DNA of 64,000 bases from an uncultured virus (IMG/VR IMGVR_UViG_3300009105_000005) (lineage: Duplodnaviria; Heunggongvirae; Uroviricota; Caudoviricetes): positions 1 to 64,000 of the IMG/VR virus record IMGVR_UViG_3300009105_000005. One strand, written 5' to 3'. The notes below the pieces were generated by a model. The model saw only the letters and a list, made by a program, of their open reading frames with translations. It was not told the origin of the DNA and ran no database searches. This document shows, piece after piece, positions 36,898 through 56,123 of this stretch; position 1 is the stretch's first letter; every line of letters begins with the position of its first letter. A program made the position numbers and the translations under genes.

Positions 36898-37353
36898 TTA
36901 TTTCGTTAGCTCCTTTATGTTTTTTAAAGCCCAATCCCGCATAGCACAGGCTTCGGTTCCGCAACTGTTATGACCGCCGCCTTCACTCCAAGCATCATAA
37001 AGCTCTTTCGGAACAGGTATGGCAGCATTATAAACTTCATCGATGTCCGTGGTGTGCGGCAATCCATCACTGCCGTAAGAACCGCTGAGCGTTATGCTAT
37101 GGCCTTTAATCCTGGCAGTTCCCATCATGAAATGACCAAATTGGTGCAAAGCAACCTTGCGCACTATTGCGCGAAAATTGTCAGGGCCAAGAGGTTTATC
37201 TTTGTGTTGGATCAGAATCAAAAACCTGGCGGGCATAGTTCTTTGCTCTGTGCTTTTATAATATATTCGTGTTTTTTCGATATACATAATTTTGTATCTC
37301 TGTATGCAAATTGTTGTACGGCTTGGTACAAAAACGTCGGCACATACGGGCAA
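36898..37353 (-). CDS. Conserved phage hypothetical protein; start likely later (MPARF)
   Basis: QFGHFMMG..SGSYGSDGLP..GGGHNS..E..MRDWA pattern. Confidence 0.55.
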   Translation of the reverse strand: MPVCADVFVPSRTTICIQRYKIMYIEKTRIYYKSTEQRTMPARFLILIQHKDKPLGPDNFRAIVRKVALHQFGHFMMGTARIKGHSITLSGSYGSDGLPHTTDIDEVYNAAIPVPKELYDAWSEGGGHNSCGTEACAMRDWALKNIKELTK

Positions 37354-38268: not shown

Positions 38269-38701
38269 AAAATCGCTGAACAAGATTGGTTTTCTTCTTC
38301 TTTCTGACCCACTACTGCTCGTTGGATTTCTTGTAAGGATTGATTCGCTAACAAATGACTGGATTACTCTCACCTCCTGGCACGCTATTTGACAATGGAT
38401 TTCTTTGTCCTCCTGACTCGCTATATTGTGCTGGTTTGCTTACACCAAATGACTCGCTAAATTATGTTGGGTTAATTTTTCCATAGACTCGCTGTGGTAA
38501 ATTGGGTTTCTCCCCCTTTCTGGCACACTTCAAACTTATTGGATTTCTAACCCTTTCTGATCCACTACTTTAATCTGGTTTTCTTGCCAGGGACGGTACG
38601 CTAAAGATGTCAGGGTTTCTGTATATCGATGACTCGCTACAAGATGTTGGATTTCTTAATGCCAATGACTCGCTATGACACTTAGGGTTACTAACGGACT
38701 T
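38269..38701 (-). repeat. TIGR-like guide RNA array, 12 units of ~36 nt
   Basis: Alternating 9-nt repeats (sense AGCGAGTCA and AGAAAYCCA) separated by unique 8-10-nt spacers. Second-type repeats start at 38287, 38323, 38360, 38396, 38432, 38468, 38503, 38540, 38576, 38612, 38648 and 38684. Confidence 0.9.
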
Positions 38702-39569
38702 AAGCAGCCTTCTTATGCTCCATGCCAAGCTTGGCCTCACTGTATTCAACTGAAACAGGTAAACCCTCAATCGCACGCCACGCAATATGCAGATCCACAA
38801 GAAAACGCTTCACCGCATACCGCAAAGCCATACGATGACGATGCATTTTGGTCTTTTCTTGATGGTCCGGATGATTCTCAAGACGATTCTTGTAATCATA
38901 ATAAGTCTTGGCATAATTAGACCGATCCGGCCCCAATCTCAAAAATGAAGTCCCAAGAACACCAAGCAACTTCGTCTTTAAAAACGGATTGAACGTTATG
39001 CTGTTTCGAAGCTTGGCCTCCCCGTCAGCAGCTTTATATTCAACCTCAATAAGATGCTCCTTGCGCTTACTCCGACCCTTGCCGTCCTCAGCAACGTCCA
39101 AACCCGCATACTTCCACAGTGAGGACGGATACTCCGCCTTTTCGATGTCAATCTCCGAAATAATCACACCGGCCATAGCGGGGCCCACGCCCTTAACCGA
39201 CTCCAAATACTTCGTCCAAAGCGGAAATTCAGCCAATATACCCTCTAATTGCTTAAAATGACGCTTCTCCGATTCCTCAAGTCCAATGTACTGAGAAATC
39301 AAAGCAAATTCCGTGTATGACGAAATAACACCCTCGGCCTTAAATTTCTTCCGGTTCGGCAAACTCAAAACACCGTCAGTAATCTTCCGAAAAGCAGCCC
39401 GAATGTCTTCCATGATCCGCTTACCTTCCTTGTCAAGCTCATCTTCCTTCTGACTCGGATCCAAACCCAACTTGGCCCTAAAGTTGGCAACCAACCGATT
39501 GCCAGTCTGAATTCTTAATTTCTGAACGGTATAACAACCCCGAACCATAGTCTTTAAATACTGTTTCAT
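38700..39569 (-). CDS. tasA: TasA-like RNA-binding protein (IS110 C-terminal / Nop-like fold, no nuclease domain)
   Basis: QKLRIQTGNRL coiled coil, VKGVGP..AGVIISEI, SSLWKYAGL, NPFLKTKL and HRMALRYAVKRFL. No RuvC or HNH. The array abuts its stop codon. Confidence 0.85.
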   Translation of the reverse strand: MKQYLKTMVRGCYTVQKLRIQTGNRLVANFRAKLGLDPSQKEDELDKEGKRIMEDIRAAFRKITDGVLSLPNRKKFKAEGVISSYTEFALISQYIGLEESEKRHFKQLEGILAEFPLWTKYLESVKGVGPAMAGVIISEIDIEKAEYPSSLWKYAGLDVAEDGKGRSKRKEHLIEVEYKAADGEAKLRNSITFNPFLKTKLLGVLGTSFLRLGPDRSNYAKTYYDYKNRLENHPDHQEKTKMHRHRMALRYAVKRFLVDLHIAWRAIEGLPVSVEYSEAKLGMEHKKAA

Positions 39570-42328: not shown

Positions 42329-42763
42329 TTAAGATTTATTTAATTCTGCCCGAATTTTCATAAGCAACTTTCCAAGCAAATTCTGGCCTTTAATATTTTG
42401 GCATTTGTTGCAGGTGCAATTGCCCCAAATATTATCATGCCAATAATTCCATTCGATTATTTCATCATTGCCGGTAGCGAGCAATTTTTTGCGCCATGTT
42501 GATGCTTGGAACTTATAACGCAAAGCATATTCCATAACGTCTTGTTTAATTTGCTCCCAATCGGAGCGAAGCTTGATTGACCTGCCTCGGCGCTTTGCTT
42601 GACCAGGTGTTCGTGCCAGGCTAACGTGATGCCGGTCGTTAAAGTCCTTGCTTTTCATAGCCTGGTAGAAATGTTCAGGCGTTACAAAGAAAAGTCCTTG
42701 GTACTTTAACGATTCTTCAAATGGCAAAAAATTACTAAACCAATTACGTCCTGATTTATTCAT
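42329..42763 (-). CDS. NADAR (YbiA-like) family protein
   Basis: FSNF, EHFYQAMK, LRSDWE, KF, LLATG, DNIWG and GQNLLGKLLM. Confidence 0.92.
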   Translation of the reverse strand: MNKSGRNWFSNFLPFEESLKYQGLFFVTPEHFYQAMKSKDFNDRHHVSLARTPGQAKRRGRSIKLRSDWEQIKQDVMEYALRYKFQASTWRKKLLATGNDEIIEWNYWHDNIWGNCTCNKCQNIKGQNLLGKLLMKIRAELNKS

Positions 42764-43098
42764 GATACGCTCCTTTCGGAATTAATCCATTCGATAGCGT
42801 TTTTAATAACATCTCCATGACAGGCTTTCGGAGCGCAGCAACATGTTAAAATCACTGTTTTTCCATTTTTAATTTCTCCAGCAAGCCTGTAGAGTTCCAA
42901 CCTAATCAGACTGTCCATTTTTTGCATTTCAGCCCATAAATAAGACCGAAACTTCTTAACAGCCTGATTTCTCGGTTCTTTATAAAACGGATTGCCGAGA
43001 ATTGCTCCTTTAGACTGCATAATTCCAGTTTCAGCCCAAGTATCAGAATCACACATAATACTTGGAATCTCGTTTCGATAATTGTGGACGATAACCAT
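42760..43098 (-). CDS. DUF4326 family protein
   Basis: LGNPF..R..AVKKF..LTCCCAPKACHGDVI. Confidence 0.85.
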   Translation of the reverse strand: MVIVHNYRNEIPSIMCDSDTWAETGIMQSKGAILGNPFYKEPRNQAVKKFRSYLWAEMQKMDSLIRLELYRLAGEIKNGKTVILTCCCAPKACHGDVIKNAIEWINSERSVS

Positions 43099-43174
43099 AA
43101 GAGCCCCCTTATAATCTTAAAGTTTTTGCCAAGCTTTTTTCAAAAAGCGGAAACTATAATCAGCCAAATAAAAT

Positions 43175-43745
43175 AAAAAAAGTTTTTGGTTCCACCAAGG
43201 GAAATCGTGAGGGTTCTGTCAAGACTCATGCAAAGTACATGACAGCTTGCTGGCGTGGGCTTTGCTGACTCGCTGTTTGGTCGGAACGTTCGTTTTTTGG
43301 TAAACTTTCAAAGTTCTATCGTCCTGAAAGTTTGCCCAAAAACTCCCGATCAAACAGGTCTTGACAGGTTCTGAGCGATTTCTCCAAGAACAACAAAAAT
43401 CTTTTTTTGGATGCTCTCCGCATCTGTCAAGGAGTCGCCGATTTATGTTAGGCTTGGCGCGTAAGAAGCTCTATAAAATAAAAATCAGATGTTTCCTTTA
43501 AATCTTTTTCGTCTGATTTTGATTTTTAGAGCTTCCGCGAATCCAAGCCTTACAGAAATGGGCGAAAAGAAGCCGCTTGCGGCGTTCCTTTTGACAACCG
43601 GAGGGCGTCAGGCGATAGGGGGGCTGGAAGGTGTAGTCCCTTGGGACCGAGCGAACAGCGAGCCTGGAAGACAACCGACCCGGAGGGGATCGCACTAATC
43701 TAACATAAAAAAAGCCCCAACTTAGAGAGAAGGGGCTTAATTTAT
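43175..43745 (+). ncRNA. Candidate large structured non-coding RNA
   Basis: Many nested long helices whose mismatches are G-U on the + strand. No credible ORF. Confidence 0.5.
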
Positions 43746-43960
43746 GCTGTTTAACCCGGACTTATATGCCGCCACGACAGCGAAAGGGGCTGGGCGGTTT
43801 TGGAACAAGGTGGCTGGCCTTGCTACTTATACATGAGGCGATACCGGTGCCACCGCAATCCCCTCACGAAGTCCTATGTGTCACACTCTCGGCAACATAT
43901 AGGCCAAATTGTTATAGTGGAAGCCAAGCTCTGCTCAATGATCCCGATTGAACCGGACTC

Positions 43961-44509
43961 TTACCGGACTTGGCGGGCGGGATTGCGCCCATTTTCCTTC
44001 CGATTGTCTATAATGAACAGATTTTTATGCCTTGTCAGAATCCCAGAGGCACTTACAACGGATTTTTCGGGTTTTGTCCATACTCGGATTCCCTTTTTTC
44101 CGTTAATAAGCAATATGGAGCCGTCTGGCATTGCCTTGAGTTCATTATATCGGAAGGTAAGGGTGATTTCCTCACCCTCAAATTGCTTTGGCGAATGAGC
44201 AAGCACCTTGGCTCTTAGAGCCCTGGTGTAATAATCGCCGGATTCGGCGTAAGATTGGTATGATATAAAGGCAATTGGCTGAATCCAGCCTAAAGTGTAG
44301 TTTACGACCTTCATGGTGCCAGTGATTCGCTTCATCATCTTGCATCCATCGTAAACTATGTCCCACCTTTGGGCGTCCTGGGCCGGCCAAGTGCCGAACA
44401 TGACGGTTTGGAAGCTTTCTTCAAGTATAAAGAGGCTGAATGTGACCAATCCCATGATAGATAAAATCAAGGCCACGTATTTCAGCCAGTTTTTAGACCG
44501 GCCGATCAA
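43961..44509 (-). CDS. Membrane-anchored hypothetical protein
   Basis: N-terminal TM segment. Coupled to the upstream ORF. Confidence 0.6.
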   Translation of the reverse strand: MIGRSKNWLKYVALILSIMGLVTFSLFILEESFQTVMFGTWPAQDAQRWDIVYDGCKMMKRITGTMKVVNYTLGWIQPIAFISYQSYAESGDYYTRALRAKVLAHSPKQFEGEEITLTFRYNELKAMPDGSILLINGKKGIRVWTKPEKSVVSASGILTRHKNLFIIDNRKENGRNPARQVR

Positions 44510-44862
44510 TATTTAAGCTCCAAATTTACGAGTTGAGCCGTCCATTGGGCATCCATCGGGTTCATGTCCGAAGGCACGAAGCCGTTAGGCGACAGAACAT
44601 GGAGCCGGTATCCCTGCGAAGTGATGGCATGGAATATTTGAGCGGCGGTTTCACAGGCTCCGTCTGTGCCGGTGGCTAAAGTTTCATCAATCAAAACCGT
44701 GACAAGCCGTGAATCGTGATTTATCCAATGGTGCTGAATATGTTTAAGCTGATCCGGTCTTAGATTCAGACTTTTCTCGAATGACAGCTTGGAGTACCAT
44801 CCGATCATGATCATAAACACCAAGACCACGGATAATAGCATGATTTCAACTTTGTTTTCCAT
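44506..44862 (-). CDS. Membrane-anchored hypothetical protein
   Basis: RBS AGGAG and N-terminal TM segment. Confidence 0.6.
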   Translation of the reverse strand: MENKVEIMLLSVVLVFMIMIGWYSKLSFEKSLNLRPDQLKHIQHHWINHDSRLVTVLIDETLATGTDGACETAAQIFHAITSQGYRLHVLSPNGFVPSDMNPMDAQWTAQLVNLELKY

Positions 44863-44955
44863 AATATGCTCCTGATTTTAGATAACAAAAAATGGACAGG
44901 CCGCTCATTATTTTTGGAGGCGGCGACCTGTCCATCGGTCGGTGATGCAGGCGAC

Positions 44956-45291
44956 TTAGAAGAAAGTACGGATATTGTACGAGACTCTGCCGTTATATTC
45001 CGTCCTGTCAGCGATCACGTTGATTTTGTCGCCGGGTTTGAGGGACTTGGCAACCTCGGCATGGTTACCAAAGGCCATCAGCGGGGTTCCGGCGGGGTAT
45101 TTGATTCCGTCAATGGAACGTTGTTCCGTGAAAATGATCCGGACGTACTCGGCACCGTTTTTGTCGATCTTGGTGACGGCGGAATCGACGGTAACGCCTT
45201 CCAGTTTGAGGTCTCCAGCGTAAGCCACGCCAACGCTCAGTACCAAAGCGAACATTGCTGCGAAAAGGGACAGTTTGAGTAAACGATTCAT
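44956..45291 (-). CDS. Exported OB-fold-like protein
   Basis: Signal peptide MNRLLKLSLF..AYA and OB-like beta pattern (KIDKNG..YVRI..AFG..LKPGDKI). Confidence 0.55.
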   Translation of the reverse strand: MNRLLKLSLFAAMFALVLSVGVAYAGDLKLEGVTVDSAVTKIDKNGAEYVRIIFTEQRSIDGIKYPAGTPLMAFGNHAEVAKSLKPGDKINVIADRTEYNGRVSYNIRTFF

Positions 45292-45379
45292 GATTAGTGT
45301 TCTCCTTTCGAGAAAGTTAAAAATTTTAGGAAATACAATTGACAATAGTTTTTGGGGGCTTCGCGCCCCCGTTTCAGGT

Positions 45380-45835
45380 TTAGAACGGAATGTCGTCTTC
45401 CACACGGACAGGTGCAGGCTGCTCGGTGCTTTGAGCGGCGGCGGCAGCTACTGCGGGCGGAGCGTCAGCATCCGAGGGGACGGGAGCGTTTTGACCGGCT
45501 CCGGCGGGTGCGGGGCCAAGAAGACGCAGGCGAGTGGCGCGAATTTCGGTGGTGTAACGGACGATATCATTATCATCCGTCCACTTACGGGTTTGCAGGG
45601 TGCCTTCAACAAGGATCTGCTTGCCCTTGGTGTAGAGTTCGCCGGCAATCTCTGCCAGCTTGCTCCATGCTACGATGCGGTGCCATTCGGTGCGCTCCCG
45701 AGCTTCGCCGGACTCCTTGTCCTTCCAGCGTTCGGAAGTAGCAACACTCAGGTTGGCAACTGCCACACCGCTCGGAGTGTACCGGAGTTCGGCATCACGT
45801 CCGAGGTTTCCAATCAAGGTAACTGAGTTCAGCAT
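45380..45835 (-). CDS. ssb: Single-stranded DNA-binding protein
   Basis: [29 protein letters not shown] and C-terminal DDIPF. Confidence 0.97.
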
Positions 45836-45972
45836 AATGTTGACTCCTTTCGTTAAGGGTTAAAATTACTTCAAAAACAACCAAAAATATTTTTACAAGC
45901 ATAGCCAGGCGAAAAAACAAAACGTTACGACCATGCTGATAATGAGTCCGGCGAACTGAACTATGAACAGGG

Positions 45973-46188
45973 CTAATGCACGCAAGCTCTGTTATTCCAT
46001 TTTCTCAGAGCTTGCGACGTAACCTCTCCGGTTGGTAGCCATCTCCCCATCCATACTTGCAGTTCCGCCGAACATTTACCGGACTTCGCAATTTCATCAA
46101 TAAACCGCAAAGCCTCGGTGTACCCTGCCACCGGCTCATGATACGTTCGACCGGTGGGAGTAGTGTATTCAACCCTGAGTTCGAGCAT
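45973..46188 (-). CDS. Hypothetical protein
   Basis: RBS AAGGGGG upstream. Confidence 0.5.
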   Translation of the reverse strand: MLELRVEYTTPTGRTYHEPVAGYTEALRFIDEIAKSGKCSAELQVWMGRWLPTGEVTSQALRKWNNRACVH

Positions 46189-46512
46189 AAAAACCCCCTT
46201 TCTGCGAAGGTTGAAACCTACGAAAGAACAACAAAAAATTGTTTTTAATATATTAAATCGGAAAGGATCCGTTTAGGGTGGGGGGTGGGTGTCCTTGAAG
46301 TGCTGCGACTTTAGATGCGAATTTGTCTTTGCATCTAAAACGGGGACGCGGGTTGGCCCCTTTACCCTATATTCCCCTTTAGAAAAGGCAGCGTATGAGA
46401 AATTTGAAATGAGGTCTAAAAACGGGGAACAGGGAACAGGCATGCCTGTCCGGTGGACGAAGTGCGAAAAATTTTTGAGCAGCGCCCCCGACCCTGTTCC
46501 CCCCAGGGTAGA

Positions 46513-46956
46513 TTAAGCAGCTTCGGGCAGAGGTCCGCCTTCGGTGTAATTTGGATATGGCACCGGCCGGTCGTCCAAAGATGCAGGCAAACGGCCTAAT
46601 TTGAGCATTTCTTCGGTATGGATGAACCCGAACATATTCCAGATGATCGCAGCAGCGTGATCTTCGGTCATTTCACCAAGTAGCAAGGCAGCTTTGAGGT
46701 CATTGATGTGCCTCTCGGCACTCTCCAGATAGCGCATAATATTTTGACCCTTTTCCCAATTACGGACAGCATACTTTATAGCCCCGCCTTCATAATGCAC
46801 GGCCAGCCGCTTCATGGCAAAAGGCGTAATTAAATCATACCGACCCTTGCCAACCTGAGAATCTCGAACAGAGCCCGTGTCGAATTCCTGTCTGTCCCCC
46901 GAATCCTGAATATCGAGGAAATCTACTGTGTTCTTGCTATTATCTGTTCCGTTCAT
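46513..46956 (-). CDS. dATP/dGTP diphosphohydrolase domain protein (DUF5664-like)
   Basis: GKGRYDLI, GAIKY..RNWEKG, SAERH and DHAAAIIWN. Start moved to MNGTD (RBS GGAGG). Confidence 0.85.
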   Translation of the reverse strand: MNGTDNSKNTVDFLDIQDSGDRQEFDTGSVRDSQVGKGRYDLITPFAMKRLAVHYEGGAIKYAVRNWEKGQNIMRYLESAERHINDLKAALLLGEMTEDHAAAIIWNMFGFIHTEEMLKLGRLPASLDDRPVPYPNYTEGGPLPEAA

Positions 46957-47121
46957 AATACTTTGTACCTCCATCGCTTTTAATAATATTTTAATTGCTA
47001 AGTTTGTTCCTCCGAACATAGCACTTCGCTCCTTTTTCCTGAATCACGACTGACTATCAATTTTCTACGGGCGTTTCCGAGTGAGACGGTGTAGCCGTGA
47101 TATGTGACATTTTTGTAACTT

Positions 47122-47346
47122 TTACTTATCTATACAGTCTGTGCAAACACTTGCAATCCTGCCTTTATAAACCTTAAAATCTTCAACAAATTTCAGCTTT
47201 TCGCACATTAAACAATGCGAAAAATTCTTATTGACATAATCCAAAAGATGGTCATTATCTAATAAGACCTCTGCCTCGAAAGAAAGCTGTGTTCTTGTTT
47301 CACAAATGCTCTTTACGTTTTTGATTTCCCCTACACCTTCACACAT
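47122..47346 (-). CDS. Small Cys-containing hypothetical protein
   Basis: CLMC..CTDC. Confidence 0.45.
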   Translation of the reverse strand: MCEGVGEIKNVKSICETRTQLSFEAEVLLDNDHLLDYVNKNFSHCLMCEKLKFVEDFKVYKGRIASVCTDCIDK

Positions 47347-47375
47347 ATCCCCTACCCTTTCTCCCCTTAAATTGT

Positions 47376-47768
47376 CTATGCAGCTAAATCCATTTCATTG
47401 ATGGCTTCGTGATTTATTAACCGCCATTCATCATCCAGCGGTAAGTTAATAATGCTATCAGAATCTTTGAATGATTCGTAATTCTGGATAATCCAGACCA
47501 GTTCATTGAATGTCCAAAATCCTGCACAAAGCGCACCTGTTGGTTGCCATTTTCGCATCCAGGCTTCTTGAAGGGGTGAAAGCTTATTGTCACCAACTTT
47601 AGCTTCAAGTTCGACCTTTAGGCCGGCCATACATCCTGTTAAATCAGCTTTACCCTTTCTACCCGGACCCGCATGACGTTTTTCTATTAAAGTTAGGTCA
47701 AGTTTGTTCAGATAGGTCAAACTCTGTCTGACCAGGTTCTTTTCTTTCTGTCTCAAACCTCGGCTCAC
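47376..47768 (-). CDS. VRR-NUC-like nuclease
   Basis: GKADL..ELEAK..LSPLQ..W. Confidence 0.75.
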   Translation of the reverse strand: MSRGLRQKEKNLVRQSLTYLNKLDLTLIEKRHAGPGRKGKADLTGCMAGLKVELEAKVGDNKLSPLQEAWMRKWQPTGALCAGFWTFNELVWIIQNYESFKDSDSIINLPLDDEWRLINHEAINEMDLAA

Positions 47769-47976
47769 TATCTGCCTCCTCGCCTTCCGGCATATAATCT
47801 ATTTCGGTTATTTCCGATTGAGCCATGTCCACAGTGGGAACAATCTTTACGTCAGCCCATTCAACGGCAGCTTCGTTGCCAGCTTCATCCTCATGGATAC
47901 ACCATGATTTTGACATAGCAACGATTGGCCCCTGGCCGAATTGACTTTCAACAATGTCGCCAATTTTAATTTTCAT
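47698..47976 (-). CDS. Hypothetical protein (SH3/KOW-like)
   Basis: IKIGDIV..FGQG pattern. Confidence 0.5.
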   Translation of the reverse strand: MKIKIGDIVESQFGQGPIVAMSKSWCIHEDEAGNEAAVEWADVKIVPTVDMAQSEITEIDYMPEGEEADSEPRFETERKEPGQTEFDLSEQT

Positions 47977-48229
47977 TTAAATTTATCTCTCTTTCCGGTA
48001 TTAAAATTTCAGCCACCTTTACTCGCTGAGAAATTATTATCAAAATATAAGGTTCATCTTCATCCATTTTAAACTGTTTATAAAACCGGAAATTGGAAAT
48101 CGGAATTGCTTTATTATCTTTACGATACCAAATCAGATTTATAACAGCCGGCCTTAAATATTCATTGATCCAGACAGACATTGAAACTTTACCAGGATCT
48201 CGGAAATAGACCTGAAATGTTTTTTCCAT
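47966..48229 (-). CDS. Hypothetical protein
   Basis: Coupled ORF. Confidence 0.5.
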   Translation of the reverse strand: MEKTFQVYFRDPGKVSMSVWINEYLRPAVINLIWYRKDNKAIPISNFRFYKQFKMDEDEPYILIIISQRVKVAEILIPEREINLNEN

Positions 48230-48810
48230 TATGCCGCCTTCCTTAGTTGATCCTCAGCAAATAGCGCCAGTTCACGTGTGGCCCTAACATCGGCAATAGC
48301 ATCATGTTCTTTTTCAAGTTTAATGCCGAAATGCTTACAAATCGTTCCTAATTTGTAGTTTTTGAGCCTTAAACCTGACCGGCAGATCAATTTAGCCACA
48401 TCGGTTCTGACGTCCCACGGACAGTTAAACATATAACTTCCAGGCCCGTACCGATCTCCGGCTGCCACCCATGTCTGTCTAAGGAAATCACAGTCGAACA
48501 TCACGTTAAATCCGACCTGCACAAACTTATCGGTTTTGTCGAATTTATTGACGTACTTGCTAAGTTTTTTTTTGAGAGCTGTAATTCCAATGGAAGGATG
48601 CGGAAATTCCATCAATTCAGCTTCGGTACGCCGGTTAATTTCCAGTGCCACCGGATCGATCTTCCGTCCTGGCAGCGGCTGAAATAAAAATTCAATTTCT
48701 TCTTTAATTACTCCGTCAATTTCAATGATTGCGCCAAGCTGAACCATAGAGTTCTGCCTGCAATCAACGCCTGTCGTTTCGGTGTCAAACCAGAATAACT
48801 TATTGCTCAT
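48229..48810 (-). CDS. DEDDh 3'-5' exonuclease (DnaQ-like)
   Basis: DTETTG, FNVMFD and HDAIADV. Confidence 0.92.
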   Translation of the reverse strand: MSNKLFWFDTETTGVDCRQNSMVQLGAIIEIDGVIKEEIEFLFQPLPGRKIDPVALEINRRTEAELMEFPHPSIGITALKKKLSKYVNKFDKTDKFVQVGFNVMFDCDFLRQTWVAAGDRYGPGSYMFNCPWDVRTDVAKLICRSGLRLKNYKLGTICKHFGIKLEKEHDAIADVRATRELALFAEDQLRKAA

Positions 48811-48825
48811 GTCTATTCCTTTCGG

Positions 48826-49062
48826 TTAGATTTTAGACCAACGGTTATCTGGACAGACCTCCTTTTCTTTATATATATCAAACACCGGTTTATCTGATTT
48901 TTCACAATAAAGCTGATTGAATCCTGTTTCTTCATCAAGCTGTATCCAAACAAGCTTCACATAATTGCACTTCCCCGCCAGACATTCCGGTGTATTGCTT
49001 TCTAAATAAGTTTCAACATCCCCTTCTTCTGTATTAAAATTCAGCGCAATCCCAGAACTCAT
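48826..49062 (-). CDS. Hypothetical protein
   Basis: Coupled ORF. Confidence 0.5.
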   Translation of the reverse strand: MSSGIALNFNTEEGDVETYLESNTPECLAGKCNYVKLVWIQLDEETGFNQLYCEKSDKPVFDIYKEKEVCPDNRWSKI

Positions 49063-49274
49063 TCGATTATCCCTCTATCTTTTGCCAGCCAGTCCGGAAT
49101 AATGATCTTAATGTCACGACCTTTTATCTTCGACCATCTAATTTGGGACTTTGGCAGAGACTCTTTGTTAACCCCATCCGTTACGATCAATGCACCTTTA
49201 TTTGGGTTGCCATAATGAGTTTCTTTGATAAGCTCAAAATAATATTCATCTTCATTAACGCCAACTTGTTGCAT
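49059..49274 (-). CDS. Hypothetical protein
   Basis: LPKSQI..IPDWLA motif of a common small phage family. Confidence 0.6.
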   Translation of the reverse strand: MQQVGVNEDEYYFELIKETHYGNPNKGALIVTDGVNKESLPKSQIRWSKIKGRDIKIIIPDWLAKDRGIIE

Positions 49275-49286
49275 ATCCCTCTCCGA

Positions 49287-51827
49287 TTATAGATCTATAA
49301 AATACCATCCACCCCTTTGCCTTGTGGGAGCCAGTATAATCAATTTTTCCTTAGCCCTTGTCATGCCGACATAAAACAGTCTGTAGATTTCATCTTTCTT
49401 TTGAGCAATGTTTTTGCCATCGGTCAGTTCTTTATATCCTTGATATGAAATATCAGGAAATAGATAGATGCAATTATGTACAACTATTTTATTTGCAATA
49501 TAATAATGCCACGGCTGGACCTTTAAAGAATATACCTTTCCATTATATAAATATTCTGAATATTCAGGCGTAAACCATTTTGCTTGTTGCTTTCCAACAT
49601 CAACCGGAACTTTCATTAGCCCTGGTAAAAAATTCACTGCTATTATTTCAAAACTATAATTTTGCCCTACCACTTGATTTCTTTTTGCTGAAATATTATT
49701 TTTATAAAACGGCCAACGAATATCCCGCCCAAATTCTTTAAGTAAATCAACAGCACGATTTTCCATACCTTTAAAACTGTTAAAAATATTATCAATCTTT
49801 TCTTGAGAAAGACTTCCCCTTGTAGCACGAAATACCATTCCAGAAATTCCATATTGAGTAGTTATTTTTGCTTCTTCAACTAAAGCATCGTATATATTAT
49901 CATGAACACCTAAGATCCATGATACTTCCGCACCTTCTCTACGAGTACGACCGCCAAGCCCAAATTGATATTTATCTCTACCTTTACGATTAAAATTATA
50001 TATAAGTTTACATTGTCCCACTCTCCACCAATTTTTCTTTTTCATTAAATAAGTAATATATTTCTTTTTTGCTAAATTATTTAATCTAACTGTCAAATGG
50101 TGATTAGGTGTTACCTCAGTAATGGCATCATCTTTTTTTAAGCAAATAATTTTTCCATTATATAATTGTGATGCTTTTATAAAACTATATCCATATAGGC
50201 CATTACTTCGCCTGCGTGTACCACGAAGAATTTTACTATTTCTTAAACTGAAACTAACAAGTTTATGTTTTGTAGAATCAAGGTTTCGAATTGGGATATA
50301 CCCATTAGTAGTTAAAATAGGAGTGTGCCCTGGATGGCAATCGGCTTCTCCGCCCTTAACACTATGGATGGTTCCAATAATAATTTTAGGCCGTTCACGA
50401 ACAGCTTCTTCCCCAAATCTCTTATACACACGGATAGGATAATCGAGTGCCGGTTGTCGGGATGCTAAAAGGTTTCCGTAAAGCCAGTCGATATCGCGGT
50501 TTAATGCCGGAGTTACCGCTTCGGCAGTTAAAAGCTGCTTTAGAACGTTTCTGGCAGTATGCAATCCTTCATGGCCTTCATCAATTGCCGCTTTCAGGGC
50601 TTTTATTCCCGCTTTTCCTTGTTTACGGATTAGGCCGCTCTCTCCAACTTTCAGATATTGCGCCCAAGAAATAAACTGCGGAATATTCCAATAATTATCA
50701 TCTATTCCACATGAAGCGAAGTTGACCAGCAGATCTCTGGCCGTAACTTTAGAATTTCCTGATTGAAGTGGGTTCCAGTCGCTTCTTTCTCTGCGGTATG
50801 GATTATGAAATGGCATTCCCTGTTCTCTCAGCAGCCTTTTTATCGGATCGATCATATAGGCGCATGTTGCCAGAAACATGATTGTTTTGCCTTCAAGAAG
50901 ATGCTGTTTAGCGTGGCCGAGAATAGCGTCCGGGTTGGTATATGTTTCATCAAGGATTTCTACGCTGCCTTCTGCTTGCCTTGGACTGTATTCTTTAGGT
51001 TCTCTTTTAGATATTTTACCTGTTAGCCTTATAGCCCTTTCAAAGACTGCCCTTGGAACTCTATATGACTGATCCAGAACCCTTTTAAATTTTTCATCTA
51101 TCGGCGGATTTAAAAAAGCATCCGGTGTTGCTCCGGCAAAACCATAAATAGTCTGATCATCATCTCCGACCAGAACGATCCATTGAGCCTGATTGCCCCA
51201 ACTTCTGACCAGCTCTAATTGTAGCCTTGTAAAATCCTGTGCTTCATCGACAAAGATTACATCCGGATTACCCGGGGCATAAGGAAGATCGGTTAGTGCA
51301 GTTTCGATCAGGTCGGTAAAATCCATAAAATCGCACTGCTTTTTAAAATCGTCCCATGCTTTGCTAAACGCCCTTAAAGCATATGGCCAATATCGGCGAT
51401 CGATCATTTTAGCCCTAAAGATATTCAGCATATTGAGAAGTTTATTCCCGCTATGTCTGCTTTCAATTCCATCAAGGTCACCACCGGCCATGGTGCTTTC
51501 GTCAAGACCGCCGATTCCTTTTTCATCGATGGCATACCTTGGATGCTCGGTGTTAAATTGCTTAAGATTCTTTTCAGCGATCTGTGGATTTCCAAGCTGG
51601 CGATAACAAAGGGCATGTAGTGTTCCAACGTGCTGTGGGTTCACAGGGATGGTTCGGCCAGTAGCAATACTTTTCTTGGATGCTATTTCCTGTGCGCCGG
51701 CTCGCGTAAAAGATGTGACGACCACTTTATCTGTGCCGAACTTTCTCACAGCATTAGGGATCTCCTCTGTAGCCAATCTGGTGCTTTTTCCCGTTCCCGG
51801 CGGCCCGAATATTCGAAGTTCCTTCAT
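49287..51827 (-). CDS. UvrD/Rep-like SF1 helicase containing an intein
   Basis: GPPGTGKS, VDEAQD, GDDDQTIY, QSYR, TIHSVKGGE and LFYVGMTRA. Confidence 0.95.
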   Translation of the reverse strand: MKELRIFGPPGTGKSTRLATEEIPNAVRKFGTDKVVVTSFTRAGAQEIASKKSIATGRTIPVNPQHVGTLHALCYRQLGNPQIAEKNLKQFNTEHPRYAIDEKGIGGLDESTMAGGDLDGIESRHSGNKLLNMLNIFRAKMIDRRYWPYALRAFSKAWDDFKKQCDFMDFTDLIETALTDLPYAPGNPDVIFVDEAQDFTRLQLELVRSWGNQAQWIVLVGDDDQTIYGFAGATPDAFLNPPIDEKFKRVLDQSYRVPRAVFERAIRLTGKISKREPKEYSPRQAEGSVEILDETYTNPDAILGHAKQHLLEGKTIMFLATCAYMIDPIKRLLREQGMPFHNPYRRERSDWNPLQSGNSKVTARDLLVNFASCGIDDNYWNIPQFISWAQYLKVGESGLIRKQGKAGIKALKAAIDEGHEGLHTARNVLKQLLTAEAVTPALNRDIDWLYGNLLASRQPALDYPIRVYKRFGEEAVRERPKIIIGTIHSVKGGEADCHPGHTPILTTNGYIPIRNLDSTKHKLVSFSLRNSKILRGTRRRSNGLYGYSFIKASQLYNGKIICLKKDDAITEVTPNHHLTVRLNNLAKKKYITYLMKKKNWWRVGQCKLIYNFNRKGRDKYQFGLGGRTRREGAEVSWILGVHDNIYDALVEEAKITTQYGISGMVFRATRGSLSQEKIDNIFNSFKGMENRAVDLLKEFGRDIRWPFYKNNISAKRNQVVGQNYSFEIIAVNFLPGLMKVPVDVGKQQAKWFTPEYSEYLYNGKVYSLKVQPWHYYIANKIVVHNCIYLFPDISYQGYKELTDGKNIAQKKDEIYRLFYVGMTRAKEKLIILAPTRQRGGWYFIDL
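49473..50339 (-). mobile_element. Intein (289 aa) in helicase motif V
   Basis: GGEAD|CHPGHTPILT, block B TPNH, VYSLKV..YIANKIVVHN|C. AT-rich relative to the exteins. Confidence 0.9.
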
Positions 51828-51865
51828 TTTTTATTTTGGCCCTTTATATATAAGACAGCTTTCTT

Positions 51866-52050
51866 CGACTACCAAAACGCCTCGTACCTCTCCTGACATG
51901 TGGATTGTAGTCGGTTTGTAGTCGGAATGTATTCGATTTGTAGTCATAGTTAAGTATGTACAATTAAAGATTATTTTATTGATGTAGTCAGATAGTCAGA
52001 TTGAAACAAAAAAAGTAAAAAAGGTTTTCTATATATATAAGGACTACAAA
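51866..52050. repeat. Iteron-like TGTAGTC repeats in AT-rich intergenic region (candidate replication origin)
   Basis: TGTAGTC at ~51906, 51917, 51939 and 51983, TAGTC at ~51993, and inverted GACTAC at ~51868 and ~52042. Lies between primase and helicase genes. Confidence 0.5.
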
Positions 52051-52134
52051 ACTTATTCTTTCTAAGTCCAAAGTCCCAAGTTCCAACCACCGTGACCATC
52101 GCAGCCGGCGTTAAGTTCCAAGTTCGTTATTTTA

Positions 52135-52206
52135 TATTTCGCTATCTTTCTGTGGGTTTCTTTTTTCACTTGGCTCGCTACCTCTCTTGGGGTTAATCAT
52201 GCCTAT
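52135..52206 (-). repeat. Two-unit TIGR-like mini-array overlapping the primase stop codon
   Basis: On +: tatttcgct-N9-tgggtttct-N9-tggctcgct-N9-ggggttaat. Confidence 0.65.
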
Positions 52207-54112
52207 CGGCGTTTCTTTTATCATCCAGATGTACCACGTCGGCTCCTTCGGATTCTGCCTGCGGTGCGGTGTTTAGTGTTCTTGATGGATCGATTATTGC
52301 TATGGGGACTTTCCAGCATTTAACTGAGGTTACTTTTTTATCGGTCTTTTTCCTGTAGCTGATACTTTTCTTTGATAACCCAAGGTCAAATTCCAATATT
52401 CGGAACAGGATTTCTCTTGGGTCTCGGTTGTTGCATGTTTGTCGGGTATAGGCATCGAACTGTATGGGGAACATGTACCAATTGCCTTTATGGATGAACG
52501 GTTGGTTGTCGGGCGCGCCTTCTTCGACTGGGTATTTTGGTCGGCTCTTGAGATACTTTTTTAGCCAGATTTTAACGATGCCGATTGCAGTACGCATTTC
52601 ATCGACAGGCACATCTTCAACTATTGACATGATAAGGTCTGCGAGTTTGTCATCCCATTCCTTTTTTGAGCATACGATTCTTTTTTTAATTAAGTTACCG
52701 ACTTGTTCTCTGAACTGGCGGAATTCCATTAGTTTATTTGAACTTCGGAATTCCGTTTTTTTATTATTGACAATCAGCCGGAACACTGGCGGATCTTCCG
52801 GGAAGCACAGAATTCTGATATCTTGAAAGCCAAGGCGTTTACAGACAGCTTTGCGGTTTTGGTCAATGTTTTGATAATCGGAGCCGGTAAGGTCGGCGGC
52901 GACATCTACGGCTTTTTGGGCTTCTTCGGTTTCGATCTTTGAGCGGGCATTGATGATCGTCCGGATGTACTTTTGTATATTGCTCAGGTGTAAGTCATGG
53001 CCGTGCTTACGCCTGAACGCAATCATGAGATCCATGATCTCTTGATCTGTCCAGTTGCATTGGGCTGCCATTAAAGCCAGTGTGAAATCGTAGCCCGAAG
53101 GTGATGTGTCGTTGAGTTCATCATCTCGGTCATTATTCCAGGTGTTTATAAATTCGGGTGCAAATATTTGGTTGATAGCGGCGAACTTTTCGAAGGACGG
53201 TTCAGCATTTTCGTTAAGTTCCAAGGTCTTTGATTTTTCTTTGATTTCCTGGGTTATATTTACGACCTTATTGGCGCTTGTATTTTTTGGTTTACTTTCC
53301 GAACAAGACTCGCTATCCGTAATAGGGTTGCTCGCTCCCCGTGGCTCGCTTTTCCCAAGTGGGTTGCTGGCGCTTGATGGCTCGCTGACGACTTCAGGGT
53401 TACTCTGGGTTATTGGCTCGCTATTTGAGATTAGGTTACTTGAGATGCTTGGCTCAATTTCAAGCAGGATTTCATCGAAATCATCCGGGTTGTATCTGAC
53501 TTTTTCGTTATACTGCAACACTGTGGCCATGACAGGGTCGCAGTTTTCTTTTTGATTGACTGTACCGATCGGACGCATTAGGCGGTCTAAATTAGAAGTG
53601 TTGTCGATTTCCCATCCTTTTTCATTGGCACGTTCTTTGATGGTGGCCTGTAGCCGGCGGGAAAGTCCCAAGGTTTCTGCCCATTCATCTTGGTCGTCAA
53701 ACATCAAGGGTTCTTTGAACAACCACCACGCCTGGAGTCCATGTCCGGAGTGCATGATTATGGTTGGGTCCCACCCATAACTTTCGATCAGTGAGCGTGC
53801 TTCTTCGATGGTTGCAGGCAGGTTTTTCTTTTTATGGGCGTGTTTATGCTGGACGTCTATATCGATGAAGAAGCCCGGGATGCCGTGAACTTGATCGACG
53901 GTCATTCTTTTATATTTGCCACGGTTTTGCCATGACATACCGGCGCAGATGTAGATATTTTGCTTACCTGCAATATAAGCGGCGGCTTCCAGGTGGCTTT
54001 GGAACCATTTGGACCGGCCTTGTTTTGGGTCGAGATCTTTTTCCCATGTTAAGATCCAGGTCCGATCATCTTTGAGGCCGAACAGTTGGTCTATAAATTG
54101 CTTAGTGTCCAT
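52193..54112 (-). CDS. Putative DNA primase / replication protein (RepB-like AEP N-terminal domain)
   Basis: FFIDIDV, SGHGLQAWW and RLMRPIGTVN. Helical domain D-x-SGYDF..W. Adjacent to the helicase. Confidence 0.75.
   Translation of the reverse strand: MDTKQFIDQLFGLKDDRTWILTWEKDLDPKQGRSKWFQSHLEAAAYIAGKQNIYICAGMSWQNRGKYKRMTVDQVHGIPGFFIDIDVQHKHAHKKKNLPATIEEARSLIESYGWDPTIIMHSGHGLQAWWLFKEPLMFDDQDEWAETLGLSRRLQATIKERANEKGWEIDNTSNLDRLMRPIGTVNQKENCDPVMATVLQYNEKVRYNPDDFDEILLEIEPSISSNLISNSEPITQSNPEVVSEPSSASNPLGKSEPRGASNPITDSESCSESKPKNTSANKVVNITQEIKEKSKTLELNENAEPSFEKFAAINQIFAPEFINTWNNDRDDELNDTSPSGYDFTLALMAAQCNWTDQEIMDLMIAFRRKHGHDLHLSNIQKYIRTIINARSKIETEEAQKAVDVAADLTGSDYQNIDQNRKAVCKRLGFQDIRILCFPEDPPVFRLIVNNKKTEFRSSNKLMEFRQFREQVGNLIKKRIVCSKKEWDDKLADLIMSIVEDVPVDEMRTAIGIVKIWLKKYLKSRPKYPVEEGAPDNQPFIHKGNWYMFPIQFDAYTRQTCNNRDPREILFRILEFDLGLSKKSISYRKKTDKKVTSVKCWKVPIAIIDPSRTLNTAPQAESEGADVVHLDDKRNADRHD
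53270..53458 (-). repeat. Five-unit TIGR-like array in frame inside the primase CDS
   Basis: Sense AGCGAGCCA and AGYAACCCW alternate with exact 9-nt spacers. Encodes SEP-xxx-SNP-xxx. Confidence 0.85.
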
Positions 54113-54118
54113 AAATGA

Positions 54119-54607
54119 CTATAATTTCTCCTGTTCGGTATAGATTGCTTTTCTTAGCACTCTTTCATAATCGATCAGATAGTAGTATTTGTCGGTGAAG
54201 ACTTTTTTGACTTTATACCGGGCTGTTTTATGGGAAATACCAATGATAATACCTTCTCCAAACTGTTGAATAACGACATAGTCTCCAAATTTAAAATCCG
54301 GCCTAATATTACACCAGTTTACCCATTTCATTACCCATTCCGTATAGACAGTGTTGTGGTCGTAATAAATTTCTTCGAGTATTTCTATGAGTTCTGTATT
54401 AATGCCATACCAACAGCATTTGTCGTCCAGAAATTTTGCAAGTTTGTATCCGTTACTTGCACCTTCGAATTTAATTGCTTTAAGAAGGTCACTCCGGATT
54501 TGCTTTTCATCGTATTCTGATCCTTGATGCCAGTTAATGACGTTTTTAATTGTCCGATCTATGGTTCCATTGATGATGCCAGGATCGTATTTCCATGGCC
54601 GTTTCAT
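54119..54607 (-). CDS. Hypothetical protein
   Basis: NGYKLAKFLD..WV..NIRP..GD..G.I pattern. Start moved to MKRPW. Confidence 0.55.
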   Translation of the reverse strand: MKRPWKYDPGIINGTIDRTIKNVINWHQGSEYDEKQIRSDLLKAIKFEGASNGYKLAKFLDDKCCWYGINTELIEILEEIYYDHNTVYTEWVMKWVNWCNIRPDFKFGDYVVIQQFGEGIIIGISHKTARYKVKKVFTDKYYYLIDYERVLRKAIYTEQEKL

Positions 54608-54896
54608 GGTGTTCCCCTTTGCCCTGTTTTTCCCCATTTTTTGGCATGGTTCCAACATAAAAACAGGGCGGCTTTTTGAGTTGAAACTCACATGGCTTAT
54701 CGCTACATATGGTTCAACTGATTGCCGCCCTATTTTTTTTGGGGGATTAAGTTGGAGTGTCTGATTGCTCCCCAGGGCTAATGCTTTACGGCTACATTTG
54801 CGCTTGAGACATTATTGCCGTCGTCCGGGCTTATTCGGTCTTATTGGACAGGAAGCGAGTTTTGCAGCGCCCGACAGACACTAAGTTTATAGCAAG

Positions 54897-55688
54897 TTAG
54901 GCTGCTGCCTTTTGTTCGGCGGCCGGAGCATCGTATCCGGCCTCGGTGTGCGCCATTTCCTTGGCTGTCTTTTTCAGGAACGGAGTGATGTTTGCGACAT
55001 ACTCGTTAATGGCCGGAATTTGCTCGGCCGGAATTGAATCCTTCAACGGAGTGAAGATAACCTTGCTGTACTCCACGCTTCCGGTGCGGGATTTATCCTT
55101 TTCCAGAGTCAGCCGTGTAACCACGTGATGCGGTTCCATACCGGCCGAAGTTAGCCCAATCAGGTATTGAAGGGCGTTCTTCAATGAGGCCGGAGCAGCG
55201 TTTAGGGTCATGGGCAGGATGTTCCCTTCCCGCAGGAAGAAGAACGTGCGTTTTTTGCTGCACGCCTGACCATCGCCTTTGCCGCCCTTAGCGGTTCCGA
55301 ATTTGGCCATGGGGCAATCTTTGCACTTACCGGATGCGCTCGGGCATTCGGGGTTGCCGATGCCGTTGACTGCATCTTCGGAGAAACAATCCGGTGGAGT
55401 TGGATCGCCTTCGCCGTAGGGAACTTCCCAATAGGTACGATTGACGGCATTATAGATGATAAGAACATTCAATTCTTTTATTTCATCGATGCCGCCGAAT
55501 TTCGGAACTTCCCATGTGGTTCCGCCGGAGCCGGGGATTTTTACCCGTTCCAGATCCAGAGCGGAAAGCTGTTCTCCGCCGAGGTTGTTTTCGATAACCT
55601 CTTTGATGTCAATGTCCTGACGCATAATGGCATAATTTTGAATGCCGACTACAGCCACTTCCTTGCCTTTTGTATTTTTTTTACTCAT
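54897..55688 (-). CDS. Conserved phage replication-module protein (possible ssDNA-binding/annealing)
   Basis: PPDCFSED..CKDCP..FG..GQAC motif. Replication-region context. Confidence 0.55.
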   Translation of the reverse strand: MSKKNTKGKEVAVVGIQNYAIMRQDIDIKEVIENNLGGEQLSALDLERVKIPGSGGTTWEVPKFGGIDEIKELNVLIIYNAVNRTYWEVPYGEGDPTPPDCFSEDAVNGIGNPECPSASGKCKDCPMAKFGTAKGGKGDGQACSKKRTFFFLREGNILPMTLNAAPASLKNALQYLIGLTSAGMEPHHVVTRLTLEKDKSRTGSVEYSKVIFTPLKDSIPAEQIPAINEYVANITPFLKKTAKEMAHTEAGYDAPAAEQKAAA

Positions 55689-55781: not shown

Positions 55782-56123
55782 TTATGCTGCCTTGGTCTGA
55801 GCGTCGGCAGGTTTGTCCACTGTTACGGTTTCTCCTACAGACGGGACTACCTTAATTTTCCTTTTGGAGACAATCACATCTGTTTGAGGTTTGTTAGAAA
55901 ACAAAGAAGACAAAATTTTATTATACCACTTTGCTTTTCGTTTCTTTTGGTTGAAGTAGGCGCGGGCGAGGCACACGATGCAGATCGATTCTTTATCAGG
56001 TTCGCTGATATCGATCCGGTGATCGGTGCATTTCAGTCCGCATTCGGCGCAGATTTTAAATCTTTTTTGGGGCGCATTACGGCCCCTGCCGACTTTAATT
56101 GCTTGAAAGATAATTTTACCCAT
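55782..56123 (-). CDS. Hypothetical protein with CxxC motifs
   Basis: CAEC..CIVC and RBS AAGGA. Confidence 0.5.
   Translation of the reverse strand: MGKIIFQAIKVGRGRNAPQKRFKICAECGLKCTDHRIDISEPDKESICIVCLARAYFNQKKRKAKWYNKILSSLFSNKPQTDVIVSKRKIKVVPSVGETVTVDKPADAQTKAA

Follow-up and report, generated by a model that had tools for sequence, protein, structure and literature searches.

The primase-polymerase gene of a marine phage that also encodes the RNA-guided system TIGR-TasA contains, in the part coding for a disordered interdomain linker, a stretch which by its anatomy and sequence family is a dual-repeat TIGR mini-array. The array lies in frame on the sense strand, and we estimate the probability at roughly 0.55 that this DNA is dual-coding, the primase mRNA also being a pre-tigRNA processed by TasA. 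The window analysed is the whole stretch of 64,000 nucleotides at the beginning of the IMG/VR record IMGVR_UViG_3300009105_000005. The features discussed are listed in Table 1.

Table 1. Positions of the primase gene, tasA and the associated TIGR arrays in the window
Feature	Position	Strand	Basis
Primase-polymerase gene, 639 aa	52193..54112	minus	ORF, PHROG, Foldseek, AlphaFold
In-frame dual-repeat TIGR mini-array, primase linker	53270..53458	minus	36-nt register, matrix scores, codon table
Non-coding mini-array at primase stop codon	52135..52198	minus	31.2 bits, register
tasA, 289-aa Nop-domain Tas protein	38700..39569	minus	NF052498, PF02371, TasH profile match
Canonical dual-repeat TIGR array, about 11-12 units	38270..38699	minus	directly downstream of tasA

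As far as the rules are set out in the available text of Faure et al. (2025, PMC12045711), dual-repeat tigRNAs are encoded in 36-nt units with 9-nt spacers and repeats of the form xG...CCA, the middle of the loop being A-rich, the edge possessing an extra C-G pair and the terminal edges being truncated. All these sequence features were found in the linker units. Five units of 36 nt start at minus-strand positions 53458, 53422, 53386, 53350 and 53314. The step is exactly 36 nt in 5/5 cases, with repeats and spacers of 9 nt each, compared with the canonical array, where 3/10 steps are 35 or 37 nt long. The edge 9-mer AGCGAGCCA starts at plus-strand positions 53414, 53378 and 53342, and AGCGAGTCT at 53306. 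The first edge is truncated at its 5′ end (ATTGAGCCA, at 53450), just GAGCCA being left, and the last one at its 3′ end (AGCGCCAAT, 53278-53270), with just AGCG left. The loop 9-mers are located at 53432, 53396, 53360, 53324 and 53288. The units, their edge and loop coordinates and the 9-nt spacers had been pointed out in a first-pass annotation, and its positions were reproduced to the base. The edges have the form AG....CCA and the loops AG....CCA or CCT, with both boxes present; box D is AG and not the UG of TasR arrays, as is also the case in the canonical array of the phage and in the arrays of its relatives. The loop middles are A-rich (TAAC, CAAC, TAAA), and the C3-G6 pair of the edge is kept. 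Decay is seen in the loop of the first unit and in the last edge. The spacers differ from unit to unit, which speaks against a simple homogenisation of the array by duplicated units.

Within the primase ORF the array encodes the peptide SEPITQSNPEVVSEPSSASNPLGKSEPRGASNPITD, where each edge repeat is translated as Ser-Glu-Pro/Ser, each loop repeat as Ser-Asn/Lys-Pro, and each spacer contributes three free residues. Array and tasA share a strand, as the first-pass annotation had stated, and the distance of about 14 kb given there was measured as 13.7 kb; the adjacency to tas seen in TIGR arrays is not observed. The array sits inside the ORF, and simple scans revealed neither a rho-independent terminator-like site on the minus strand in 51700-54900 nor a promoter-like site on that strand within the primase gene. 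The Rfam search of the region 37500-54500 returned two tRNAs only and no family for the TIGR units.

The units were scored with a matrix trained solely on the phage's own tasA-linked canonical array, the units of which reach 24.3-32.0 bits under the same matrix. The four full linker units starting at 53422, 53386, 53350 and 53314 obtained 26.4, 24.1, 22.5 and 27.2 bits, respectively, and the degenerate first unit 13.7 bits; the highest-scoring unrelated site on both strands of the 74,264-nt genome had 12.2 bits. Under an independent-base model, a score of at least 22.5 bits is expected 2.6e-3 times per genome, a single 27.2-bit unit 7.7e-5 times, and four in-phase units of at least 22.5 bits about 1.5e-26 times per genome. 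A degenerate unit pattern matched the 91-kb record of the phage 11 times, always on one strand (four matches in the linker, one in the 3′ UTR and six in the canonical array), and its backwards-read control gave 0 matches in that record. The sixth primase-linked unit, found at the stop codon, ranks third by score among all units of the genome, and its expectation is 6.8e-7 per genome under the independent-base model. Here, a loop-like 10-mer over the TAA stop and the spacer after it precede a full edge (from 52180); spacers A and B then flank a loop, and a 3′-truncated edge closes the series.

The codon usage of the linker shows a nucleotide-level bias at the repeat positions. The repeats contain GAG for Glu (5/5), AAC for Asn (4/4) and AGY for Ser (10/10), which account genome-wide for 20%, 41% and 35% of the respective codons, while off-repeat codons of the same linker are GAA for Glu (3/3) and AAT for Asn (2/2). 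The earlier statement that Ser is always AGY is correct for the first codon of each of the ten repeats, but one repeat-internal Ser is TCT and 4/6 off-repeat Ser codons are TCN. Among 20,000 synonymous recodings, none matched the observed total score of 113.8 (recoded mean 1.6, maximum 80.8). The freedom of synonymous sites had been proposed as a check, and within the repeats these sites are not free, as both the rare synonyms and the recodings show. Reading the codons as a result of selection requires an old array, the age of which is judged from the similarity, at the protein level, of a few units in three orthologues; if the array had been inserted or converted recently, the same codon picture would result without selection.

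The gene product is an AEP/RepB′-like primase-polymerase, in which a catalytic fold (residues ~1-219) is followed by the linker (220-285) and then by helical and C-terminal domains (286-610). It is similar to phrog_2478 "DNA polymerase/primase" (E 1.1e-11), and the Foldseek search found cyanophage S-2L PrimPol (6zp9, E 1.9e-6) and RSF1010 RepB′ (3h20, E 8.2e-5). The Pfam search of the primase itself gave no match, and RepB_primase_C (PF22448) was detected in 5/16 of its homologues. The only segments with an AlphaFold pLDDT under 50 are 220-285 and 611-639, and the array-coded residues 220-285 are predicted to be disordered between two well-folded domains. No sequence likeness was found between the primase and TasA.

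The periodic repeat-coded linker is kept in only the closest 3/102 primase homologues; 99/102 lack the pattern, and in more distant homologues the linker is about 60 residues shorter. The array-bearing orthologues, including P0002 and P0003, share 49-61% identity. It had been suggested that the linker might vary in 12-aa steps, and the linker of the orthologue at 49% identity is indeed two units (24 aa) shorter than that of the orthologue at 61%. The entropy over 26 half-units of the three orthologues is 0-1.3 bits at repeat-coded positions and 2.3-3.2 bits at spacer-coded ones, and the variable repeat-coded residues (Pro/Ser, Asn/Lys, Ser/Cys/Asn) correspond to nucleotide positions that are variable in real arrays too. 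The spacer-coded residues are completely different between the orthologues, which indicates that the needs of the protein do not hold them in place. Judging by these sequences, the repeats are kept while the number of units varies.

A protein search with a four-sequence profile found no further close relatives of the primase. The metagenome scan yielded 79 loci, all belonging to distant relatives with at most 51% identity in the best segment; the viral-contig scan with P0002 gave no match, and that with P0003 gave only the present phage and distant relatives. In the flanks of up to 10 kb around distant primase homologues tasA was absent (tblastn of TasA, 90 loci), only two copies of the present phage being matched. 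Among the sequencing runs listed for the phage, 8 are DNA runs, from 2 studies, and none is an RNA run. No variants in the primase gene were listed in Logan contigs of four DNA runs over 38000-54500, which are low-depth and near-identical and hence uninformative on variation or expression.

The Tas protein of the phage matches NCBIfam NF052498 TIGR_Tas_endo (121.9 bits, cutoff 100) and PF02371 (E 5e-6). A profile comparison with solved TasH chains (E 2.2e-12) matched the Nop part alone, and no HNH or RuvC nuclease match was found in TasA. Residues Y276 and H285 are invariant across 20 sequences. Y276 aligns with SpTasH Y289, described as catalytic in the accessible part of PMC13421893, and H285 is located two residues past the H296 position in a flexible tail, making these residues candidates for the processing function. 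The canonical array is composed of the edge TAGCGAGTCA and the loop AAGAAAYCCA. The matrix also locates arrays beside tasA homologues in 75/80 IMG/VR loci. Among 750 distinct units of relatives, pre-selected by the matrix so that the count leans to the consensus, the primase 9-mers occur verbatim: AGCGAGCCA 139 times, AGCAACCCA 33 times and AGTAAACCA 17 times. The consensus of the 750 units agrees with the box D/box C pattern of the linker, and edge positions 2/7 and 3/6 covary in the family (e.g., AACGAGTCA, AGCGAGCCA, AGTGAACCA). The canonical array of the relative G008 has exactly AGCGAGCCA with AGCAACCC or AGTAACCC. In a comparison of the primase protein with the whole records of ten relatives, just residues ~198-297 were matched, and solely to stop-containing canonical arrays (4/10 records, best E 1.6e-7).

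In ten long records of relatives every unit is located beside tasA, the exception being one record whose units form two clusters separated by 5 kb. Single-unit matches inside ORFs were observed in the loci L095, L150, L152 and L169. Open frames running through the arrays of L123 and L131 were rejected as spurious, being purely translated array in GC-rich DNA. One syntenic relative encodes TasA with 66% identity and, 15.3 kb upstream on the same strand, a primase homologue with 32% identity. No TIGR units were found in or near that primase gene, where Ser-Glu-Pro is encoded as TCG GAG CCG; the arrangement is therefore not required by TasA phages generally.

Targets of the six primase-linked guides were searched for in the phage's own genome, using both spacer arrangements with gaps of 0-2 and 60 random spacer pairs for comparison. 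The best sites had 3-4 mismatches out of 18, which equals the random level. Spacers shared with the 750 units of relatives were no more frequent than random.

If the dual-coding reading is correct, the primase mRNA would act as a pre-tigRNA, and TasA dimers would recognise every edge and loop by its box-D-like AG and box-C CCA. The C-terminal Tyr/His loop of TasA would cleave in the middle of the edges, giving up to five 36-nt guides and one more from the 3′ UTR. These cuts would split the mRNA between the parts coding for the catalytic and the helical domains. Loaded with the released guides, TasA would act as an RNA-guided DNA binder and repressor, and TasA activity and primase supply would become negatively coupled. 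We infer transcription of the array as a substrate, its binding and cleavage by TasA, the guide function and the feedback. The stronger statement, that the mRNA is a working bifunctional molecule from which TasA frees guides while destroying a replication message, seems to us somewhat short of an even chance. It seems that the interpretation of the primase mRNA as a guide precursor, made in the first-pass annotation, is partly supported by the sequence evidence. Cleavage of an essential mRNA looks costly for the phage, and the absence of a target in its own genome, the distance to tasA and the lack of a terminator also speak against this interpretation.

Another explanation, which we consider distinctly less probable than dual coding but a serious one, is that a piece of array entered a length-tolerant linker by illegitimate recombination and was exapted. 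The linker would now be only a flexible Ser/Pro/Glu/Asn-rich tether, and its likeness to arrays would reflect recent capture or occasional gene conversion. The array may well have originated as a mobile unit tolerated in the linker, the present evidence relating to its later history. The predicted disorder, the shorter linkers of distant homologues, the variation in unit number usual for a tolerated tandem repeat, the syntenic TasA phage with its unit-free primase, the lack of targets in the phage genome and the decay of the first loop and the last edge are all consistent with such a relic. However, a simple tether does not account well for the placement of rare synonyms exactly at the repeats and of common ones elsewhere in the same linker, or for the failure of any recoding to equal the observed score. 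The repeat tripeptides, unlike the spacer residues, are kept in all three orthologues despite their divergence, and a high-scoring non-coding unit stands at the stop codon of the same gene.

It is unlikely that the repeats are a purely cis-regulatory site, where binding of TasA makes the primase mRNA less stable or less well translated and the fragments target no DNA. The sequence evidence for this is identical to that for a guide precursor, and the absence of targets in the phage genome would be expected; besides, spacers that must also encode acceptable linker residues have less freedom to track a target. Nevertheless, the spacers are wholly different between orthologues, the target search was confined to the phage genome, and blocking translation makes little sense at the 3′ UTR unit, which is outside the reading frame. 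As for an ordinary Ser-Glu-Pro / Ser-Asn-Pro peptide repeat resembling TIGR repeats by chance, low-complexity Ser/Pro-rich linkers are common in proteins, but the expectations calculated for the four in-phase units and even for one 27.2-bit founder, the recoding test and the 99/102 homologues without the pattern refute this explanation for practical purposes.

According to the accessible literature, TIGR-Tas was first described in 2025, and its natural targets, its roles and the origin of its arrays are open questions in the field. The dual-coding reading connects an RNA-guided repressor with phage replication in a concrete way that can be tested. If true, it would mean that such a repressor takes part in timing the replication of phage DNA and that TIGR arrays can seed and stay under selection far from tas, in essential coding DNA, which bears on the birth and spread of these arrays. 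It would also be a natural example of one sequence meeting protein and guide-RNA constraints together, with repeat positions bending to coding: the third base of the loop gives Ser here, where it usually gives Arg. Array gain and loss could be studied on the three orthologues, whose differing unit numbers make them a small natural series. Array finders are confined to the surroundings of tas, and the canonical units found here lie 13 kb away in an essential gene; units far from tas suggest that guide repertoires may be under-counted.

The N-terminal fold of the primase is like that of RSF1010 RepB′ (3h20) and cyanophage S-2L PrimPol (6zp9), with the linker joining the catalytic and helical domains, and we know of no guide-array-coded linker in primase-polymerases of this type. 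The full-text literature search found no paper treating TIGR-Tas together with a primase, and only one preprint on intragenic tigRNAs. As far as can be taken from the accessible text of this preprint (Xu et al. 2026, 10.64898/2026.09.09.750476), in-frame tigRNAs within tas genes have been sequenced, including those of Bifidobacterium longum TasA by small-RNA sequencing, and a coupling of guide maturation with translation is raised. The finder described there is confined to the surroundings of tas, and the primase array would escape it. Intragenic arrays in tas are thus already in print, and what is new here is the host, a replication gene remote from tas. In the cases of Xu et al. presented in that text, the host gene is tas and the arrays are mostly of the stem-loop type, whereas here the array is dual-repeat and lies in a replication gene far from tas. 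Compared with the TIGR-TasA arrays described in the available text of PMC12045711, the linker array differs in being remote, intragenic and translated, in its exact 36-nt steps and in having no terminator. At the same time, it is like dual-repeat arrays from that source, e.g., that of Flavonifractor plautii, in the layout of the units, the location on the same strand as tas and the presence of a Nop-domain TasA in the genome, and it shares with the intragenic tigRNAs of Xu et al. in-frame units, an unbroken reading frame and a position in disordered sequence flanked by folded elements.

Read in a 36-nt register on the minus strand, the repeats inside the primase-polymerase gene resolve into five units, each composed of a 9-nt edge repeat, a 9-nt spacer, a 9-nt loop repeat and a further 9-nt spacer. 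The first-pass annotation had claimed five in-frame 36-nt units with 9-nt spacers; these and all its edge and loop start coordinates proved exact, and the distance of 14 kb from tasA on the same strand was confirmed as 13.7 kb. All five steps of the linker array are exactly 36 nt, so the reading frame is kept; three of the ten steps of the canonical array are 35 or 37 nt. The linker array lies on the sense strand of the primase gene and is thus contained in any primase mRNA. The parent virus record comprises 74,264 nt, and IMG/VR also holds this phage as a 91-kb record with a completeness rating of 93%.

Coordinates of the features and scores under the matrix trained on the canonical array
Feature	Position	Strand	Score (bits)	Description
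tRNA-Glu and tRNA-Asp genes	37912-38228	minus		
Canonical array	38270..38699	minus	24.3-32.0 (units)	directly 3' of the tasA stop codon; about 11-12 dual-repeat units; edge TAGCGAGTCA, loop AAGAAAYCCA
tasA	38700..39569	minus		289-aa Tas protein
UvrD-like helicase	49287-51827	minus		846 aa
Primase-helicase gene gap	51900-52090	minus		repeated GACTAC(A) motifs
Complete unit	at 52180	minus	31.2	directly after the primase stop codon
Primase ORF	52193..54112	minus		639 aa; contains the linker array
Linker array, 36-nt register	53270..53458	minus	26.4, 24.1, 22.5, 27.2 (four full units); 13.7 (degenerate first unit)	5'-truncated edge, five units, 3'-truncated edge
Best unrelated site in the genome, either strand			12.2	

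The position matrix was trained on the canonical array only and scanned over both strands of the 74,264-nt genome, where a unit of at least 22.5 bits is expected 2.6e-3 times under an independent-base model. It detects this array family fairly: in 75 of 80 IMG/VR loci with a tasA homologue it found an array next to that gene. Nearly all of these arrays share the strand of tasA and contain stop codons in each of the three frames. In a set of 750 distinct units from these relatives, chosen by the same matrix and hence biased towards consensus, the primase edge AGCGAGCCA was seen 139 times, and the primase loops AGCAACCCA and AGTAAACCA occurred verbatim 33 and 17 times. Exactly the primase-type edge/loop pair makes up the canonical array of one relative (G008). 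As an independent check, the primase protein was searched against the whole records of ten relatives; no homologue of the primase domains was found, and the only matches joined primase residues of about 198-297 to canonical, stop-containing arrays (four of the ten records, best E 1.6e-7). The primase linker is translated array.

The tasA product passes the cutoff of 100 of the NCBIfam TIGR-Tas model (121.9 bits) and matches PF02371. A profile of its family hits the Nop portion of solved TasH structures (E 2.2e-12), and since a nuclease domain is absent, the protein is classed as TasA. Together with the canonical array, its anatomy fits the TIGR-Tas definition of Faure et al. 2025 (PMC12045711). 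Two residues, Y276 and H285, are the same in all 20 TasA sequences of the clade; Y276 aligns with SpTasH Tyr289, and H285 lies two residues beyond the H296 position. SpTasH, according to PMC13421893 and the preprint by Xu et al. 2026 (10.64898/2026.09.09.750476), self-processes its dual-repeat array by means of Tyr289 and His296, which lie in a flexible loop near its C-terminus. TasA (38700-38712) and two unrelated neighbouring ORFs (54897-54910, 55782-55795) have Lys-Ala-Ala or Ala-Ala-Ala at their C-termini, and most TasA homologues end in His-x-x-Ala-Ala.

The two tRNA genes, also on the minus strand, follow the canonical array at 50-300 nt, so they may share a transcript with it. In five of 11 canonical units, spacer A is rich in purines and resembles a Shine-Dalgarno sequence (38314-38567, minus strand: GAAAGGGT, GAAAGGGG, GAAAGAAG, GGAGGACA, GGAGGTGA); three of the five adjoin variant edges, suggesting that units have been duplicated inside the array. 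At a relative's locus (L169), a single 23-bit unit (5861-5896) lies within the coding sequence of the tasA homologue itself (match at 5742-6782), the same arrangement as the arrays inside tas genes described by Xu et al.

Across 44 long ORFs of the genome, GAG accounts for 20% of Glu, AAC for 41% of Asn and AGY for 35% of Ser codons. In the linker, Glu is GAG at five of five repeat positions and GAA at three of three outside them, and Asn is AAC at all four loop repeat positions and AAT at both others. Serine, annotated at first as always AGY, is so in the first codon of each repeat (10/10) but not outside the repeats, where TCN occurs four times and AGC twice. Among 20,000 synonymous versions of the linker peptide drawn with genome codon usage, the total matrix score averaged 1.6 and reached 80.8 at most; the observed linker scores 113.8, and its DNA is thus far more array-like than the peptide demands. 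The rare repeat codons and the recoding test speak for the nucleotide-level constraint proposed initially, but the codon signal is a sign of selection only if the linker array is old.

PHROGs annotates the host protein as 'DNA polymerase/primase'. Its N-terminal domain matches the AEP domain of cyanophage S-2L PrimPol (E 1.9e-6) and RepB' (E 8.2e-5), and RepB_primase_C is present in five of 16 aligned homologues. In the AlphaFold model (mean pLDDT 81.3), residues 1-219 and 286-610 are confident, and pLDDT falls below 50 only at residues 220-285 and in the C-terminal tail. The interdomain linker of the first-pass annotation is borne out by this low-confidence segment between two confident parts, where the array-coded residues 225-284 are predicted to fill a disordered tether. 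In more distant homologues the tether is about 60 residues shorter.

The unit after the primase stop is preceded by a loop-like 10-mer overlapping the TAA and followed by a 3'-truncated edge. A degenerate unit pattern matched the 91-kb record 11 times, always on one strand (four in the linker, one after the stop, six in the canonical array), and its backwards-read control gave no match there. Farther on, the motifs of the primase-helicase gene gap (TRF periods 11 and 22 at 51902-51945, among others) and the repeated GTGACTTA motifs in the same place after the primase of a MAG relative (L171, 11700-11860) look like replication-origin iterons. The UvrD-like helicase has helicase matches at residues 4-240 and 812-831; the long unmatched insert between them, bounded by Cys ... 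His-Asn-Cys, looks like a candidate intein.

A search of 5.8 billion clusters yielded 102 primase homologues. The periodic Ser-Glu-Pro/Ser ... x-Asn/Lys-Pro linker is found only in the closest three, namely this primase and two others at 61% and 49% identity, and is absent from the next (44%) and all remaining homologues; a profile search gave no additional close relatives. Linker length varies in 12-aa steps, as had been envisaged, the 49% orthologue having two units (24 aa) fewer than its 61% counterpart. Over 26 half-units, entropy is 0-1.3 bits at repeat-coded and 2.3-3.2 bits at spacer-coded positions. Repeat-coded residues alternate between Pro and Ser in the third codon of the edge, between Asn and Lys within the loop, and among Ser, Cys, Asn and Ile in the loop's first codon; the underlying nucleotide positions also vary in real arrays. 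Because Pro/Ser is harsh for a protein, while in box C it amounts to a mild exchange of U and C, we infer that this variation fits RNA-level better than protein-level constraint.

The contig of the MAG relative encodes a TasA (66% identity) and, 15.3 kb upstream on the same strand, a primase homologue (32% identity), a layout identical to that of this phage, and the canonical array there is built from the same repeats. The matrix scan found no unit of at least 12 bits within 10 kb of that primase, whose Ser-Glu-Pro codons are TCG GAG CCG. TasA phages do not, as a rule, carry units in their primase genes. Ten long records of relatives, seven of them with a completeness rating of at least 90%, have all their units beside tasA, save for one record with two clusters 5 kb apart. 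One relative, L150 (G012), has its TIGR units in two clusters separated by about 5 kb, one on each strand (12861-13081 minus, 17769-18332 plus), and one 22-bit unit falls within a 142-aa open frame.

According to PMC12045711, dual-repeat arrays are cut mid-edge into 36-nt guides, and short arrays with full edges undergo processing; the Xu preprint shows that TasA acts as an RNA-guided transcriptional repressor. It seems somewhat more probable than not (roughly 55%) that TasA would bind and cut the array-bearing primase mRNA, release up to five linker guides and one 3' UTR guide, and thereby lower the full-length message. A captured array that is by now a purely protein-coding relic would account for the variable unit number and for the MAG relative without units; this explanation is rather unlikely, fitting poorly with the codon contrast inside one linker, with the fact that three diverged orthologues have kept the repeats, and with the further, non-coding unit after the primase stop. 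The cutting model can also be narrowed to a site that TasA binds in cis and that has no role as a guide, but this is improbable. Chance likeness of the linker to TIGR units is excluded for practical purposes.

No targets of the primase-linked guides beyond chance were found in the phage genome. An irregular canonical unit (at 38494) matches positions 37274-37292, the start-codon region of ORF 36898..37353, with one mismatch of 17 and a 2-nt gap. It is the only self-match better than random, borderline after multiple testing, and marks a candidate self-regulatory TasA target.

Full-text searches found no paper linking TIGR-Tas with a primase, and the combination of tigRNA and intragenic returned only the Xu preprint. 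The preprint describes arrays within tas coding sequences, in frame and in disordered regions, most of them of the stem-loop type and one confirmed by small-RNA sequencing; its array finder operates on the surroundings of tas loci. The linker array differs from these, so far as they are described there, in being of the dual-repeat type, in lying 13.7 kb from tas and in residing in a replication gene with a second unit at its stop codon. In-frame arrays inside tas are thus already known, and what is new here is a dual-repeat, tas-distant array in a replication gene, accompanied by the stop-codon unit.
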